Below, piece by piece: positions 15,091-47,762 of a stretch of DNA of 64,000 bases. The number at the start of each line of letters is the position of its first letter. The stretch's first letter is position 1. A model generated the notes under the pieces. The model saw only the letters and a list, made by a program, of their open reading frames with translations, did no database searches and was not told the DNA's origin. The stretch is taken from positions 3,548 through 67,547 of the forward strand of contig JBILWX010000003.1 in NCBI GenBank assembly GCA_044369655.1. The letters are read 5' to 3'. The position numbers were made by a program, and so were the translations under genes. This stretch comes from Pirellulales bacterium (GTDB lineage: Bacteria > Planctomycetota > Planctomycetia > Pirellulales > UBA1268).

Positions 15091-15900
15091 TCAGCCCGTG
15101 GTTGATCCCACGAGGATCAGGATCAGCTCCTTCGGGCCGTGGGCGCCGAGCACGAGAATCCGCTCGATGTCGCCCGTGCGGCTGGGGCCGGTGATGAAGG
15201 AGAGCATGCTCGGCATGCGACCGTCGTGCCGGGCCTGGGCGGCGTGCAAGGCATCGGCGAGGGTCGCCACAATCTGGTCGGCGGTGGCCACGACCACGTG
15301 GACATGCGGCAGGATCGATAGTGCCCGTCCGCCCGAGGTGGCGCTTGAGACGAGGATCGAACCGGTCTGGGCGACGAGCGCCTCACACGACGTCATACCT
15401 GCATCACACGATTCGAGGGCATTCTTGTCGAAATCCGCGGCATCGACGCGATAGGTCGTGCAGGGCATGCCCGCGAGCAGGGGCTCCACGAGCGCATGGG
15501 GATGCCAGGCCACCTTCTGCCAGCCCCGTTCCCGCGCGATCGCGACGAGGGTGGCGCTCGCGGCGGTGAGGTCGGGGGCTTGATGGACGATCGCCCGGAG
15601 CTTGCCGAGATTGGCCAGGAGCAGCGCGAGGCGTTCCGCCGGCGTCTCGCCGCCATCGGGCAGCCACGGACGGGCGACCTCCTCGGGTAGCACGGTGAGC
15701 ATGGGAAGGCCGTGGGCGGCGTGTGCAGACCCGAGACTCGGAGCCGATGCGCCGCTGGTCGTCGCCGTCGCCCGTTGATCCCGCTGGCTTCCCTGCACCT
15801 GCTCGGTAAGGCCGTGCGGGAAGGGCGCCGGCACGCGGAGTGCCTCCTTGATCCGCTTCAGGATCACGTCGCGGGCCGAGAGGCCGGTTTCGCCGCTCAT
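15091..15900 (-). CDS. lutC: lactate utilization protein C (LUD domain, YkgG family)
   Basis: ATG at 15900 (MSGETGLSARDVILKRIKEAL). The ATGA overlap with the lutB stop is at 15897..15900. LUD-domain C-terminus. The track ORF reaching 16371 is an extension. Confidence 0.8.
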   Translation of the reverse strand: MSGETGLSARDVILKRIKEALRVPAPFPHGLTEQVQGSQRDQRATATTSGASAPSLGSAHAAHGLPMLTVLPEEVARPWLPDGGETPAERLALLLANLGKLRAIVHQAPDLTAASATLVAIARERGWQKVAWHPHALVEPLLAGMPCTTYRVDAADFDKNALESCDAGMTSCEALVAQTGSILVSSATSGGRALSILPHVHVVVATADQIVATLADALHAAQARHDGRMPSMLSFITGPSRTGDIERILVLGAHGPKELILILVGSTTG

Positions 15901-17381
15901 GCCCGAACCTCTCCGGCGTGAACGTGCTTGTCCGAGCGGCGGCGATGCCACTGCCGCCGGAAGCTCTGCCGCGGGGCTGCCGGGAGATCCCGGGAGGCCA
16001 GCCAGTCCCGCAGCAGCGGCGGCCGCAGAGCCTTCAGCAGCGGCAGCGTGCAGCGGAAGACCGCCCCGCCTACCGCAAAGAGCCAGGGGCGGCGGGCCAC
16101 CACGACGAACAGCCGGTGCCCCAGTCGCTCCCAGGCGTTGGGAGCGGTCCGGGCGGCATTGCGGCGGTTGTGCAGCAGGTGGTGGTGGATGTCGATCCGC
16201 ACCGGACAGGCGTCGGTGCAGGCGCCGCAGAGCGAACTGGCGGCGGAGAGGTGGTTCCAGTCGGCCAGACCGCGGAGATGCGGCGTGATCACCGAGCCGA
16301 TCGGTCCCTGGTAGGTCGTACCGTACGTGAAGCCCCCCACGTTCTTGAAGATCGGGCAGACATTCAGGCACGCACCACAGCGGATGCAGTGGAGGCTGTC
16401 CCGCTGCTCGGGATCGGCGAGGAGGGCCGTCCGCGAGTTGTCGAGGAGCACGAGGTGCATCTCCTCCGGGCCATCGGCTTCGCCGGTCTGCCGTGGCCCC
16501 GCGTAGAGGGTGTTGTAGCAGGTCATGGGCTGGCCAGCCCCGGCCGTGGCCAGCATCGGCAGGAGCACCGCCAGGTCGTCGAGGTGTTCCACCACCTTCT
16601 CGATGCCGGAGATCGCGATGTGCACGCGCGGCAAGGCCGCCGTCAGCCGGGCATTGCCTTCATTCTCGGTGATCGAAATCTGGCCGGTTTCGGCAACGAG
16701 GAAATTCGCCCCGGTGATCCCGACGTCGGCATCGACGTAGAGCCGGCGCATGTGCCGGCGGGCGATCATCGTGAGTTCCTCGGGGCTGTCCGTCGGCGCC
16801 GTGCCGAGATGCTTTTCGAACAGATTGCTGATTTCGTCGCGGCGGACATGCATGCACGGGAAGACGAAATGATAGGGAGGCTCGCCACGAAGTTGCTGGA
16901 TGAACTCGCCCAGATCGCTTTCCACCACGCCGTAGCCGTCAGCCTCGAGCGCCGCGTTCAAGTGGATCTCTTCGCTGGTCATGCACTTGCTCTTGATGAC
17001 CGCCTTCGCCCGGGCGTCCCGGACGAGCTGGAGCACGATCGAGCGGGCCTCTTCGGCGCTCCGGGCCCAGTGGACAAGTCCGCCATTGGCCTCGAAGTTG
17101 GCGACGAACCGGGGCAGGAGTTCGTCCAGCCGGTTCACGGCCGACCATTTTGCCAGGCTCGCCGCGTCGCGGGCGTGCTCCCAGTCGCGGAAGCGGGCTT
17201 TTTGGACGTCGCGGCTGGCGTAGTAGCCGCTGAGGGCCTTGCGGACGAACGCCCGGTGTCCGGTATCGCGGACATGTTCGGTCGCGTCGTGCAGAAACCG
17301 CTTTTTAGCTTCCCGCGCCTGTTCCCCGCCGGGGTCGGCGGGGTGGCTGGCGGCCGGAGCGGAAGCGTCGGTGGCGATCAT
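15897..17381 (-). CDS. lutB: lactate utilization iron-sulfur protein B (YkgF family)
   Basis: LUD domain plus two 4Fe-4S motifs, CIRCGACLNVCP and CGACTDACP. Start is at ATG 17381 (MIATDA..) or at 17504. Confidence 0.85.
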   Translation of the reverse strand: MIATDASAPAASHPADPGGEQAREAKKRFLHDATEHVRDTGHRAFVRKALSGYYASRDVQKARFRDWEHARDAASLAKWSAVNRLDELLPRFVANFEANGGLVHWARSAEEARSIVLQLVRDARAKAVIKSKCMTSEEIHLNAALEADGYGVVESDLGEFIQQLRGEPPYHFVFPCMHVRRDEISNLFEKHLGTAPTDSPEELTMIARRHMRRLYVDADVGITGANFLVAETGQISITENEGNARLTAALPRVHIAISGIEKVVEHLDDLAVLLPMLATAGAGQPMTCYNTLYAGPRQTGEADGPEEMHLVLLDNSRTALLADPEQRDSLHCIRCGACLNVCPIFKNVGGFTYGTTYQGPIGSVITPHLRGLADWNHLSAASSLCGACTDACPVRIDIHHHLLHNRRNAARTAPNAWERLGHRLFVVVARRPWLFAVGGAVFRCTLPLLKALRPPLLRDWLASRDLPAAPRQSFRRQWHRRRSDKHVHAGEVRA

Positions 17382-17588
17382 CCAGTCATGATAGCCGACG
17401 GAGAGCCCACGGCCGCAGTCGCCTCCGACCGCCCCGGGATCGTGGTTCTGTGGAATTCTGCCGGGACAGACGGTAAAAATTGTGGAATACTTCTGAAAAG
17501 CCACGAGGTGGACGCCGACCCCCCCGGGGGGCCGCCCGAAGCATCGGGCTGTGCGTCAGCGGCAGGCCGGTTTGGAAAGGTGACCCGA

Positions 17589-19220
17589 ATGATCTCAGCG
17601 GCCGCGATCGATCGCCTGATCTGGCTGGGATCGGCCTGGATTGTGCTGGCCACCGCCTGGACGGCCTTCTGCATGTGGGTCGACACCGATTTCCGGGAGA
17701 TTCTGGGCGAAGACTTTCCCTGGTCGTTGGTGTTCGTCGCCGCAGGCGCGGTCTGGTTCTTCTTCACCTACCAATACGGCCTTGGCATGCTGCCGTTGTT
17801 CCTGGTGGTCATGCCCGCCTCGTTTTTCGGGTATGTGGCGTATCGGGACAGCAAAGCCCCGTCGACCAGGAAGATGCTGACCCGACGGTTCGCCCGCAAG
17901 ATGATCTTTCTGGCAGCCACGAAACTGGGCATGGAGAAGACGGTCGAAAAGTGGCTGCCGGCGCGGAGCGGACCCGCTGCTCCCGAAAACATCGCGGTCA
18001 TCATTCTCAAAAAGGACGGTACACCTGTCGAAGGCCAGGTGGGCGATCTGGACCGCGAGGCCTCGAAGGCGCTCAAGACCGTGCAGCAGATCTTCGAGAA
18101 GGCGATCGAGATGCGGGCCACCGACGTGCACCTCGAACCCAAGGAGGGAGAGGAGTTGGTTGTCCGCTGCCGGATCGACGGCATCATGCAGAACGTGCTC
18201 GCGCTCAAGGGATCGGCCGGAAAAGCCGTGGTATCGGCGATCAAGGTCTGCGCCGACATGGATATCGCAGAGCGCCGCCGGCCGCAGGACGGCACGTTTG
18301 CCCTGCTCAAGGCGGGCAGAAAGTTCGACGTCCGCGCCGCCTCCGGCCCGACGAGCTTCGGTGAGAAGATGGCGCTGCGACTGCTCGACGCCGACAGCGG
18401 CGTCATCAAGGGGGGGCTGGCTTCGCTCGGTATGCGGGAGTCGATGCTCAAGACACTGCAATCGATCGTCCAGCAGCCCAATGGCATGCTGATCGTCTGC
18501 GGCCCCACCGGGTCGGGCAAGACGACGACCCTCTACGTTGCCCTCGGCGAGATCGACGTGCTTTCCCGCAACATCGTCACCATCGAGGATCCGATCGAAT
18601 ACCGGCTCGAAAACATCTCGCAGACGGCCGTCAACACGGCGGCGGAACTCACGTTCGCGAAGATCCTGCGGTCGGTGCTGCGGCAGGATCCGGACGTGAT
18701 CCTCGTGGGCGAGATCCGCGACAAGGAGACGGCCGAGATCGCGATGCAGGCAGCGCTCACGGGCCATTTCGTGTTCACGACGCTGCATGCCAACGACACG
18801 GCCACGACCGTCACGCGGCTGCTCGACATCGGCATCGACACGACGCTCCTGCAGTCGGCGGTGACCGCGGTGCTCGCCCAGCGGTTGGTGCGGGTGCTCT
18901 GCCCCAAGTGCAAGGAGCCCTATCCGGCGCCCCCTGAATTCCGGCAGAAGCTCGGCGTACCGCCCGAGAAAGAGGTCACGATCTATCGGGAAAAGGGCTG
19001 TCCAGCCTGCCACGGCACCGGCTACAAGGGCCGCACGGGAGTGCATGAACTGCTCGTGTTCGACAACGCCATCCGCGACCTGTTGGTCGGGCAGCCGTCG
19101 ATCCAGGCCATCCGCGCGGCGGCCCGCAAGGCGGGAACGCGCACGCTCCAGGAGGCGGGGATCGCCAAGGTTCTGGCCGGCATCACGAGCCTCAACGAGA
19201 TTGTGCGGGTGACCAAGTGA
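17589..19220 (+). CDS. GspE/PilB-family secretion ATPase with N-terminal 3-TM membrane anchor
   Basis: ATG at 17589; the upstream part of the 1100-aa track ORF is antisense to lutB. TM helices are LIWLGSAWIVLATAWTAFCMWV, WSLVFVAAGAVWFFFTY and LGMLPLFLVVMPASFFGYVAY. ATPase motifs: Walker A GPTGSGKTT, Asp box IEDPIE, Walker B DPDVILVGEIRD, His box TTLHAN, tetra-Cys CPKC..CPAC. Confidence 0.85.
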   Translation: MISAAAIDRLIWLGSAWIVLATAWTAFCMWVDTDFREILGEDFPWSLVFVAAGAVWFFFTYQYGLGMLPLFLVVMPASFFGYVAYRDSKAPSTRKMLTRRFARKMIFLAATKLGMEKTVEKWLPARSGPAAPENIAVIILKKDGTPVEGQVGDLDREASKALKTVQQIFEKAIEMRATDVHLEPKEGEELVVRCRIDGIMQNVLALKGSAGKAVVSAIKVCADMDIAERRRPQDGTFALLKAGRKFDVRAASGPTSFGEKMALRLLDADSGVIKGGLASLGMRESMLKTLQSIVQQPNGMLIVCGPTGSGKTTTLYVALGEIDVLSRNIVTIEDPIEYRLENISQTAVNTAAELTFAKILRSVLRQDPDVILVGEIRDKETAEIAMQAALTGHFVFTTLHANDTATTVTRLLDIGIDTTLLQSAVTAVLAQRLVRVLCPKCKEPYPAPPEFRQKLGVPPEKEVTIYREKGCPACHGTGYKGRTGVHELLVFDNAIRDLLVGQPSIQAIRAAARKAGTRTLQEAGIAKVLAGITSLNEIVRVTK

Positions 19221-19260
19221 GCAGCCAGGCATTCCCGGCGACGGTGCAGACGAGGCAACC

Positions 19261-20271: not shown

Positions 20272-21000
20272 CTACTGCTCGTCCACCATGCCGGCCAGCA
20301 CCTCGGCCAAATGCACCGTGCGGGCCTTGCGCCCGTTGCGGCTGAGCCAGCCGTCGAGTTGCAACTGACAACTCGGATCACTCGAGACGATATAGTCGCA
20401 CTCGGTGCGGGCCAGCGAACCGCCCTTCACCTCGGCCATCGCCGTGGAGATCATCGGAAACTTCACGCTGAACAGCCCGCCAAAGCCGCAGCAGCTCTCC
20501 GGCTCGTCACATTCGACCAGTTCGAGGTCGCGAACGGCCCGCAGCAGTTGCCGGGGTTCGTCCTTGACCCGGAGTTCGCGGAGCCCGTGGCAGCCGTCAT
20601 GGTAGGTGACGCGGTGCGGGAAGCGGGCGCCCACGTCCGTGACGCCGAGTTTCTTGACGAGAAACTCGCCGAATTCGAAGGTCCGAGCCGCCAGGTCGAG
20701 GGCGGCCGTCTCGTGGGGCGTGTCCGCGAGCAGCTCCGGGTAGAAGACCCGCATCATCGCGACGCAGGAGCCGCTTGGGCCCACCACCGCGTCGGCGTCC
20801 GCGAAGACCTCCAGACTATGGATGGCCACGGCGCGGGCTTCATCCCAATAGCCGGCGTTGAAGCTCGGCTGGCCGCAACAGGTTTGCGCGGAGCGGAACT
20901 CGACCGTGTGGCCGAGCCGCTCGAGCACGCGGGCCACCGCCAGCCCCACCTGCGGGGTCATCTGATCAACGAAGCAGGGAATGAACAGGCTGACGTTCAT
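20272..21000 (-). CDS. lutA: lactate utilization protein A ((Fe-S) oxidoreductase, YkgE family)
   Basis: Two CCG-domain motifs (TCCGQPSF and SCCGFGG). ATG at 21000. Confidence 0.85.
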   Translation of the reverse strand: MNVSLFIPCFVDQMTPQVGLAVARVLERLGHTVEFRSAQTCCGQPSFNAGYWDEARAVAIHSLEVFADADAVVGPSGSCVAMMRVFYPELLADTPHETAALDLAARTFEFGEFLVKKLGVTDVGARFPHRVTYHDGCHGLRELRVKDEPRQLLRAVRDLELVECDEPESCCGFGGLFSVKFPMISTAMAEVKGGSLARTECDYIVSSDPSCQLQLDGWLSRNGRKARTVHLAEVLAGMVDEQ

Positions 21001-46916: not shown

Positions 46917-47762
46917 CTAGTTGGGGGTTTGGGTTTCGCCGCCTGCGCGGGTGCAGATGGCGATCAGCACCCGCACGTCGACTCGCTCGTCGAGGAACGA
47001 CACATGGCCGTCGCCGTACAGGCTGTTGATGCCCCCGGTATGCAGACTCCGGAAGCCGTCGACGCTGGGGTCGTTGACGACCCGGGAGTTGAGCGGAAAG
47101 CAGTTGGTGCCACAGGCCCAGCAGGCGTCGCCGTGCGTGTGGGAGTCGGCCCCGGAAGTGTCCCGGTCGACCGCTTCCGCGACCAGCAGCGTGCGCGACA
47201 GGCCATCCGAGACCGAGGCTGCCGTCGCCGCGTGCCTGTATTCGGCGTCGGTGGCATAGAGAATCCCGCCGTGCTCGTCTCCCGGGGAGAGTGGAACGAT
47301 GGCCTCGCCCGTCGGCTTGATGTAGACGCCGAGGATGCCGCCGTAATCCTGTTTGCCGGGGAACTGCTTGATGGCAGTGGGGCAGACATACGTGGGGATG
47401 GTGATGTCGACCTTGGACAGATTGCCGGCGGGATCGTCCCACGGCTTGCTGTAGTCGATGCGGTCCGACACCGCCGACTGCTCGAGGAACGGCAGGATGA
47501 ACGACGACCAGGCATGGAGACGGCCGCCAAGCTGATCGTTGCCCGGCGGAAATCGTTTCTTCGCCTGCTCGTAGTTGCCCAGGGCCACCCCCATCTGCCG
47601 GAGATTGTTCGAGCACTGTGCCAGGCGGCCGGCTTCTCGAGCCCGTTGGATGGCGGGCAAAAGCAGTCCGATCAGCGTGCCCAGAATTGCCAGAACCGCC
47701 AGCAACTCGACGAGCGTAAAGCCGCTGCGACGGACCGGACGGGAGTGGAAGGGAGAGATCAT
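46917..47762 (-). CDS. DUF1559 protein with prepilin-type N-terminal cleavage/methylation domain
   Basis: GFTLVELLAVLAILGTLIGLLLPAIQRAREAGRLAQCSNNLRQ is the hallmark planctomycetal DUF1559 N-terminus. ATG at 47762. Confidence 0.9.
   Translation of the reverse strand: MISPFHSRPVRRSGFTLVELLAVLAILGTLIGLLLPAIQRAREAGRLAQCSNNLRQMGVALGNYEQAKKRFPPGNDQLGGRLHAWSSFILPFLEQSAVSDRIDYSKPWDDPAGNLSKVDITIPTYVCPTAIKQFPGKQDYGGILGVYIKPTGEAIVPLSPGDEHGGILYATDAEYRHAATAASVSDGLSRTLLVAEAVDRDTSGADSHTHGDACWACGTNCFPLNSRVVNDPSVDGFRSLHTGGINSLYGDGHVSFLDERVDVRVLIAICTRAGGETQTPN

Follow-up and report, generated by a model that had tools for sequence, protein, structure and literature searches.

Introduction

PilB/GspE-type ATPases are described as soluble rings that GspL or PilM bring to the membrane and that act on GspF or PilC. 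In the type II secretion system, GspE/EpsE (PDB 4pht, 4ksr, and 1p9r) is the ATPase that works with GspL and GspF, while PilB/PilF (PDB 5tsh, 5oiu, and 5zfr) are the extension ATPases of type IVa pili. Here, we describe a related ATPase from a 64,000-nucleotide stretch of Pirellulales DNA (GenBank assembly GCA_044369655.1, contig JBILWX010000003.1, positions 3,548 to 67,547 of the forward strand), hereafter called the window. In this protein, P0001, three predicted transmembrane helices take the place of the soluble N-terminal domain, and the gene that encodes it is directly followed by a gene of the CvpA family.

Tethering of a ring ATPase by N-terminal transmembrane helices is known from VirD4/TrwB coupling proteins, FtsK/SpoIIIE, and FtsH. 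The window ATPase shares this design principle with them, but they come from other ATPase families, have DNA or protein as their substrates, and are not paired with CvpA. Pfam searches found no homology between its membrane anchor and anchors of these types.

CvpA has been known since the work on colicin V. Studies of the protein have linked it to bile resistance, for which enteric bacteria require it, and to the sigma-E response; a channel function has been speculated on, and no mechanism is available yet. No ATPase partner of CvpA is named in the CvpA literature that we found. Likewise, we found neither a membrane-anchored GspE/PilB protein nor a pairing with CvpA in the literature on GspE/PilB anchoring, Planctomycetes, and CvpA, and a 2024 review of PilB control and cofactors describes no transmembrane form and does not contain the word 'transmembrane'.

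Results

The window ATPase has a complete GspE/PilB-type core

The 543-residue window ATPase belongs to the PilT/VirB11-like secretion ATPase superfamily. Pfam T2SSE (PF00437) matches residues 161–540 with an E-value of 4.1e-121 and 404.6 bits (gathering threshold 24.9), and the hallmark motifs of the superfamily are present: Walker A (CGPTGSGKTTT, residues 304–314), the Asp box (IVTIEDPIEY, 329–338), Walker B including the catalytic Glu (QDPDVILVGEIRD, 366–378), and the His box (TGHFVFTTLHAN, 391–402). A zinc-type CxxC...CxxC site is formed by CPKC (438–441) and CPAC (471–474). Its four cysteines, C438, C441, C471, and C474, are invariant in the family alignment, as expected for a GspE-type tetracysteine site. 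When placed in a common alignment with canonical PilB/GspE sequences, the catalytic and zinc-site motifs are identical to theirs.

By sequence, GspE is the closest relative: its model scores highest in NCBIfam, and it also gives the top PDB match. The GspE model TIGR02533 aligns through positions 96–486 to residues 147–542 with 487.1 bits, below its equivalog cut-off of 630.25. The PilB model TIGR02538, whose alignment begins only at model position 175, scores 426.2 bits against a cut-off of 675.65. Among PDB sequences, Vibrio GspE leads (4kss, E 7.6e-108; 1p9r and 4pht also about 1e-107), followed by PilB/PilF of Geobacter and Thermus (E about 1e-95; PilB 5zfr, 1.1e-95). The N2 domain and C-terminal core are 44–46% identical to GspE, with which they share the motifs and the zinc site. 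The best structural matches come from the PilB/PilF side, at 42% identity. Foldseek aligned an AlphaFold2 model built from 22 relatives (mean predicted local distance difference test score, pLDDT, 81) with PilF 5oiu at a template modeling score (TM-score) of 0.90 and with PilB 5tsh at 0.88, over about 385 residues, so that the hexamer-forming two-lobed unit of N2 and C-terminal domains is common to these proteins. An initial annotation of this DNA, made from the sequence alone, had placed all hallmarks of type II/IV secretion ATPases in the C-terminal two thirds of the protein, and Pfam, NCBIfam, and the motif table bear this out. The best reading of these features is that the core, complete and with every motif intact, would be catalytically competent.

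Three transmembrane helices replace the N1E domain

The first 95 positions of TIGR02533, which correspond to the N1E domain, have no counterpart in the window ATPase. Neither T2SSE_N nor the GSPII/MshEN N-terminal domain was matched by Pfam or NCBIfam; this also distinguishes the protein from PilB. Residues 1–146 instead comprise a transmembrane module and a linker. Hydrophobic stretches lie at about residues 10–30, 45–62, and 64–84 (two of the three exceed the hydropathy threshold of 1.6, and the third was read off the sequence), and AlphaFold2 predicts helices at 4–39, 45–63, and 65–89 with pLDDT values of 68–83. W24, W30, D34, W45, Y82, and R86 are invariant family-wide. Hydropathy, structure prediction, and the TIGR02533 alignment thus agree with the earlier proposal that about 95 N-terminal residues form three hydrophobic helices in place of N1E. 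The linker, the least conserved part of the protein, begins with a basic juxtamembrane stretch, STRKMLTRRFARK, and continues with short helices (99–113 and 116–122) and a disordered segment. It ends in a conserved LKKDGTPV(D/E)GQ strand, and the N2 domain begins near residue 156.

We considered whether translation might start beyond the transmembrane region, at Met96, Met105, or Met115, and rejected this. Residues 1–160 are 48–94% identical in at least 100 clusters among the matches listed, and the anchor aligns across orthologues without frame problems. Its codons have a G+C content of 0.83 at third positions versus 0.46 at second positions, and 20–32 of the 90 codons show purely synonymous differences from relatives. 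The 84-nt region upstream has no such codon periodicity (G+C of 0.79/0.71/0.71 at the three positions), and a Shine-Dalgarno-like GGAAAGG lies about 9 nt 5' of the ATG. Protein-level conservation of the anchor in so many clusters, together with its coding periodicity, leads us to consider the annotated start real, which answers the main doubt that the initial annotation had raised about its own proposal. The upstream region, which separates the divergent lutB and ATPase genes, is presumed to hold the promoter, and no sigma-70-like match was found in it.

The anchor appears to be confined to this architecture. A profile of residues 1–146 from 11 orthologues, compared with 1.84 billion representative proteins, gave 61 matches. 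Every full-length one (525–622 residues) is fused to a T2SSE core, and all 12 short matches that we read break off inside the N2 domain, identifying them as contig-end fragments of T2SSE proteins; no other architecture with the anchor was found. Pfam searches with the isolated anchors of five members returned nothing above noise. One further candidate, a match starting at residue 50 (L044), was rejected, since it proved to be a normal PilB whose N-terminal domain is soluble.

Several distant members (P0142, P0149, P0134, P0150, and P0136) carry a signal-peptide-like segment ahead of the first transmembrane helix. Such a segment would lie outside the cell, and three helices would then bring the ATPase into the cytoplasm. 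We therefore infer an N-out, C-in topology from the sequences.

A CvpA-family gene is an obligate neighbor of the anchored ATPase in the loci sampled

The initial annotation recorded a CvpA-like gene 40 nt downstream of the ATPase and regarded it as a mere neighbor. The spacing is exactly 40 nt, but the status of a mere neighbor did not hold up. Using a hidden Markov model (HMM) derived from the partner, we found that all 38 anchored loci with downstream DNA have a CvpA gene directly downstream in the same orientation, compared with 0 of 49 canonical PilB/GspE loci when up to 10 kb was examined. The reverse test gave the same picture. An alignment of five CvpA partner sequences fetched 49 metagenome loci, 45 of them evaluable; in all 45 an ATPase core ends 5–98 nt before the CvpA gene, and no contig that extends far enough lacks the anchor. 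In the data sampled, the co-occurrence analysis suggested earlier thus makes CvpA an obligate partner.

In freshwater Planctomycetota metagenome-assembled genomes (MAGs), the order lutC-lutB (-), ATPase-CvpA (+), lutA-sucD-sucC (-) is kept in about 30 species genomes. Since gene order shared within a clade might be plain synteny, we examined distant members. A CvpA-type gene follows directly in nine of nine distant anchored representatives (two of these genes are below threshold in Pfam but clear with the partner-derived HMM). Overall, the pair occurs in at least five unrelated gene contexts, including contexts without lut or suc genes (L081/L129/L134, L082, L085/L087, L086, and L088). The distant pairs have RND/M50/MOSC genes, hisF, CO-dehydrogenase genes, or others at their sides. 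Spacing is tight in some lineages, with an overlap of 4 nt in L081 and a gap of 4 nt in L083. An all-against-all comparison of open reading frames (ORFs) in these contexts, which is noisy given the shadow ORFs of high-G+C DNA, found no third shared gene beyond clade-specific neighbors. We are confident from this two-way linkage that the two genes constitute a conserved functional pair. In the window, a GAGG lies 5 nt before the CvpA ATG and the 40-nt spacer contains no terminator-like hairpin; the two genes are likely co-transcribed.

We also compared evolutionary distances across the 39 loci in which all five genes are present. Pairwise distances between loci in the ATPase core track those in the CvpA membrane domain, with a correlation of 0.95. 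After SucD and LutA were regressed out, the partial Mantel r was 0.77, a value reached in 0 of 2000 permutations, versus 0.09–0.36 for housekeeping neighbors. This covariation fits a shared selective history of the pair, a suggestive result. It is also the line of evidence from which we infer that the two proteins may form a physical complex in the membrane.

The partner has four predicted transmembrane helices and a repeat domain

The 328-residue partner is a CvpA-family protein, matched at residues 19–149 by Pfam Colicin_V (PF02674) with 39.4 bits (cut-off 29.3). Its AlphaFold2 model (pLDDT 69) has four transmembrane helices at residues 2–36, 38–68, 73–97, and 109–137. Two juxtamembrane helices follow, with a conserved segment that runs from D154-x-G156 through TFARC to LLDGEPG and ends at residue 183. 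A disordered Pro/Glu/Lys-rich linker (184–227) leads to a small Asp/Asn-rich repeat domain at about 230–300, in which the repeats WSEPFxDxNGN, GEPYLDxDxNG, and NGN..RD.GL.ERYR are conserved, and then to a disordered tail. Foldseek found no PDB match for the model (best E 3.1).

A Colicin_V domain, four predicted transmembrane helices, and a variable C-terminal extension are features that the partner has in common with the E. coli colicin V production protein CvpA and with the CvpA-like domain of MarP. In MarP the extension is a protease, whereas in the partner it is the Asp/Asn-rich repeat domain; distant lineages have a cadherin/Big_9-like domain at the C-terminus. Asp-rich repeats and Ig-like domains typically occur in proteins outside the cytoplasm, and the protease domain of MarP is periplasmic. 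For E. coli CvpA, too, the C-terminus is predicted to be periplasmic (bioRxiv 10.1101/2020.09.25.314492). By analogy, both termini of the partner would face outward, and its C-terminal domain is probably periplasmic.

Anchored ATPases branch outside canonical PilB and GspE

We built a tree of ATPase cores from 16 anchored and 58 canonical PilB/GspE proteins, with a PilT-like protein as outgroup. In it, the anchored proteins with intact catalytic residues group in a single clade (support 97) and a long-branched anchored group forms a second (support 95). Both lie outside all 58 canonical proteins, planctomycete PilB/GspE paralogues included; the two anchored clades and the canonical set meet at a node that the tree does not resolve. 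No catalytic residue varies within the branch of the window ATPase, while identity ranges from 53% to 96% in the core and falls to 26–29% in the anchor.

The Asp and His boxes and the lysine of Walker A are gone from members of the second group (L085–L088). These members retain the T2SSE core, the anchor (profile E about 5e-5 or better), the tetracysteine site, and a CvpA gene directly downstream. In two contigs, a soluble PilT-like ATPase of 381–386 residues with intact motifs is encoded directly upstream of the dead anchored protein, forming a sister module with a short CvpA of about 210 residues; in L087 the dead anchored protein and CvpA stand beside hisF without the PilT-like gene. A word-based homologue search with a member of the dead branch returned one relative only. 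Compared with this sister module, in which the anchored protein has lost catalysis, the anchored protein of the window is the sole ATPase and is intact. The window's protein would thus represent the active and self-contained type within a larger family of anchored ATPases paired with CvpA.

In the source records of the MAGs, members of the module are labeled Pirellulales, Planctomycetaceae, Gemmatales, and Planctomycetales, and we regard the module as conserved in Planctomycetia. Several lake MAGs (L003, L009, L021, L022, L026, and L027) are labeled 'Candidatus Kuenenia'; their genes are 64–89% identical to those of MAGs labeled Pirellulales or Planctomycetaceae, and the labels are probably wrong. 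Among canonical planctomycete loci, we observed that two PilB/GspE-type ATPase genes often lie about 3 kb apart (L061, L063, L064, L074, L075, L049, and L068). These paired ATPases fall in two separate, well-supported clades of the tree.

Classical partners are missing from the window

When the likely genes of the whole window were scanned with Pfam, none for GspF/PilC, a secretin, PilM/N/O, or a prepilin peptidase was found. The gene context of GspE is also missing: gspF, gspC-M, and gspD occur neither in the window nor as conserved neighbors in related loci, where the conserved neighbor is CvpA, and the pilC/pilM neighborhood of PilB is absent as well. In roughly 90 anchored loci with flanks of up to 10 kb and at least five contexts, no platform or pilin gene was seen as a conserved neighbor, although the scan for these families covered some but not all of the flanking genes. 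These scans agree with the initial annotation, which had reported no adjacent GspF/PilC, secretin, or pilin gene; the one prepilin-like ORF lies 27 kb from the ATPase.

The ATPase-CvpA pair, on the (+) strand, splits lutA from lutB-lutC, an arrangement also kept in many lake metagenome contigs. The lut context is present in the window's clade and missing in other lineages that bear the pair; two more divergent pairs (L083 and L084) also have lutB upstream. The features are collected in Table 1.

Table 1. Positions of the ATPase-CvpA module, its parts, and other features of the window; the last row refers to other contigs.
Feature	Position	Strand	Evidence or remark
Divergent intergenic region, lutB start (-) to ATPase start, 84 nt; presumed promoter region	17505..17588	.	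Sequence read
Membrane-anchored GspE/PilB-type ATPase gene (P0001), 543 aa	17589..19220	+	ORF, Pfam, NCBIfam, orthologue alignments, AlphaFold2, Foldseek
Anchor module, aa 1-90, three transmembrane helices	17589..17858	+	Hydropathy, AlphaFold2, invariant columns of alignment A3, anchor profile (A2)
Linker, aa 91-155	17859..18053	+	AlphaFold2, alignments A1 and A2
N2 and C-terminal ATPase core, aa 156-543	18054..19217	+	Pfam T2SSE, PDB sequence matches, Foldseek, motif table
Walker A	18498-18530	+	Motif table
Asp box	18573-18602	+	Motif table
Walker B with catalytic Glu	18684-18722	+	Motif table
His box	18759-18794	+	Motif table
Tetracysteine site	18900-19010	+	Motif table; cysteines invariant in A3
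Spacer, ATPase stop to CvpA start, 40 nt	19221..19260	+	Sequence read
CvpA-family partner gene, 328 aa	19261..20247	+	Pfam Colicin_V, AlphaFold2, alignments A4 and A5, co-occurrence
lutC	15091 to about 15900	-	LUD_dom, Fer4, LutB_C matches (lutB and lutC); upstream context, outside the module
lutB	15897-17504	-	As for lutC
lutA (CCG domains)	20272..21000	-	Downstream context only
DUF1559/N_methyl prepilin-like ORF	46917-47762	-	Pfam; N-terminal methylation motif; 27 kb from ATPase
Cys-rich YTV-repeat protein, 548 aa	13093-14739	-	Signal-like N-terminus
ORF, 485 aa	11452-12909	-	Good coding statistics, no Pfam match
ORF, 633 aa	9527-11428	+	Good coding statistics, no Pfam match
ORF, 1370 aa	864-4976	+	Good coding statistics, no Pfam match
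Polysaccharide-synthesis region	about 23600-49100		Lower G+C; may be a surface-glycan island
Sister module: PilT-like ATPase, dead anchored GspE-like protein, short CvpA (about 210 aa)	L085 6123-9836; also contig of P0137		Adjoins hisF

Besides the lut and suc genes, the window contains a large polysaccharide-synthesis region, Ffh, TrmD, an AAA protein, and several transporters. The long polysaccharide-synthesis region has a G+C content of 0.60–0.65, compared with 0.67–0.72 elsewhere in the window. It includes several GT2 and GT4 glycosyltransferases, two GDP-mannose dehydratase-type enzymes, sulfotransferases, methyltransferases, a DegT aminotransferase, and RgpF and RmlA-like genes, and may be a variable surface-glycan island. 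Beside the lut genes, in the window as in relatives, lies a gene for a Cys-rich 548-residue protein with at least four YTV repeats (a planctomycete-specific Pfam family). For three sizeable ORFs, coding statistics are good and Pfam gave no match; the 485-residue product of one is 89–92% identical in related MAGs (L005 and L019).

Discussion

The arrangement described here differs from those of the known GspE and PilB systems: the ATPase brings its own three helices in place of attachment through GspL, and its conserved neighbor is CvpA. We define an anchored GspE-like/CvpA module by two properties, fusion of the anchor to a T2SSE core and a CvpA gene directly downstream, and the window pair displays both. 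The initial annotation had allowed that the architecture might be a well-described subfamily. Yet source annotations of anchored proteins are generic ('GspE/PulE family', 'hypothetical protein', 'TadA'), the anchor matches no Pfam family, no equivalog cut-off is reached, and we found no published description of this two-gene module.

How might such a pair work? On balance, we lean toward a self-anchored, catalytically competent motor that acts with CvpA in the inner membrane and is physically coupled to it. The ATPase would be a hexameric motor of the PilB/GspE class, fixed permanently in the cytoplasmic membrane by its three helices. The anchor would occupy the place of the soluble N1 domain, which normally docks on GspL or PilM, and it is a reasonable idea that such a tether would become unnecessary. 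Co-expressed with the four-helix CvpA protein, the ATPase would act with it as a two-protein inner-membrane module. ATP-driven movements of the N2 and C-terminal domains could pass through the linker to the anchor helices and on to CvpA, within or at the membrane, and might thereby switch CvpA from one state to another, whether CvpA works as a channel or transporter or acts by way of its periplasmic domain. The anchor, the intact motifs, and the conserved pairing with CvpA lend support to the earlier suggestion of a minimal or novel membrane-embedded motor.

Whether a GspF/PilC-type platform is dispensable is a separate matter; that the pair works without one is possible, and we put this forward tentatively. 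The more far-reaching proposal is that type IV filament motors gave rise here to a self-sufficient inner-membrane machine of ATPase and CvpA that needs no pilin, in which CvpA is driven in place of GspF/PilC and the dead sister branch with its PilT-like ATPase is a variant. We regard this proposal as doubtful.

Several observations weigh against a coupled ATPase-CvpA motor. The anchor adds no covariation with CvpA to that of the core (partial r -0.22), and SucD and LutA are so highly conserved that they are imperfect controls, which may partly explain the covariation of core and partner. The positive-inside rule is ambiguous for the topology of the partner. With the topology proposed above, CvpA would expose just two short cytoplasmic loops and could not plug the hexamer pore as domains of PilC/GspF are thought to; coupling would then need membrane helices or juxtamembrane segments. 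In metatranscriptome data, a single 179-nt contig from one run is identical to positions 19059–19237 and reaches 17 nt beyond the ATPase stop, which is too little to show co-transcription; the remaining pieces are short, mismatched, and from other organisms. Finally, the DUF1559 ORF is a type IV filament-related gene in the window, the only one besides the ATPase.

This last observation bears on an alternative in which the anchored protein is a PilB/GspE paralogue that powers a conventional type IV filament machine encoded elsewhere (GspF/PilC, DUF1559 prepilin-like proteins, peptidase), with the anchor replacing the GspL/PilM tether and CvpA serving as an accessory or assembly factor. Planctomycetes encode many DUF1559 prepilin-like genes, and both the motifs shared with canonical extension ATPases and a core fold matching PilB/PilF/GspE (TM-scores of 0.88–0.90) would suit such a role. 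It is nevertheless CvpA alone that is conserved beside the ATPase in the roughly 90 anchored loci, within the limits of the flanking genes scanned, and canonical PilB/GspE loci never carry it. Given also the position of the anchored family outside the whole sampled set of canonical ATPases, those of planctomycetes among them, we consider a conventional filament machine unlikely.

The sister branch raises a different question, namely whether the anchored ring is primarily a motor at all. L085–L088 have kept the anchor, the CxxC...CxxC site, and CvpA despite losing their catalytic motifs, and the PilT-like ATPase directly upstream in two contigs could be read in the same way: the ring would serve as a scaffold or sense nucleotides, and in this way gate or regulate CvpA or some other partner. 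The window's branch argues otherwise, because its catalytic residues are all retained, with the core at 65–96% identity, though the anchor is down to 27%. Their invariance over such wide divergence indicates selection on ATP hydrolysis itself, and no PilT-like gene adjoins the window ATPase. For the window protein, a purely regulatory ring therefore seems quite improbable. An annotation artifact with an untranslated N-terminus, or a mobile or defense cassette such as an anti-phage system, is hardly credible despite the insertion-like position of the pair on the opposite strand between lutA and lutBC, as the anchor has coding periodicity and amino-acid conservation, the position is kept across the species genomes and metagenome contigs of the clade, the base composition of the pair matches its flanks, PADLOC gave no meaningful match (best E 6e-4, no matched stretch), and no mobile-element gene was identified among the neighbors, where repeats were not looked for.

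A motor acting with CvpA would be of interest to work on type IV filaments, on CvpA, and on the planctomycete envelope. A branch of these motors with its own place in the membrane and another polytopic protein as its partner would mean that the motor has been redeployed, and a wider role for type IV filament ATPases becomes possible. For at least one branch of CvpA, an obligate ATPase partner provides a testable hypothesis and a handle on function. If the pair does prove to be a self-sufficient, pilin-independent machine, it would give the CvpA family its first mechanistic assignment and PilB/GspE-type motors a new class of output. Since the module spans genomes labeled Pirellulales, Gemmatales, and Planctomycetales, it is likely part of the basic, poorly understood biology of the planctomycete envelope.

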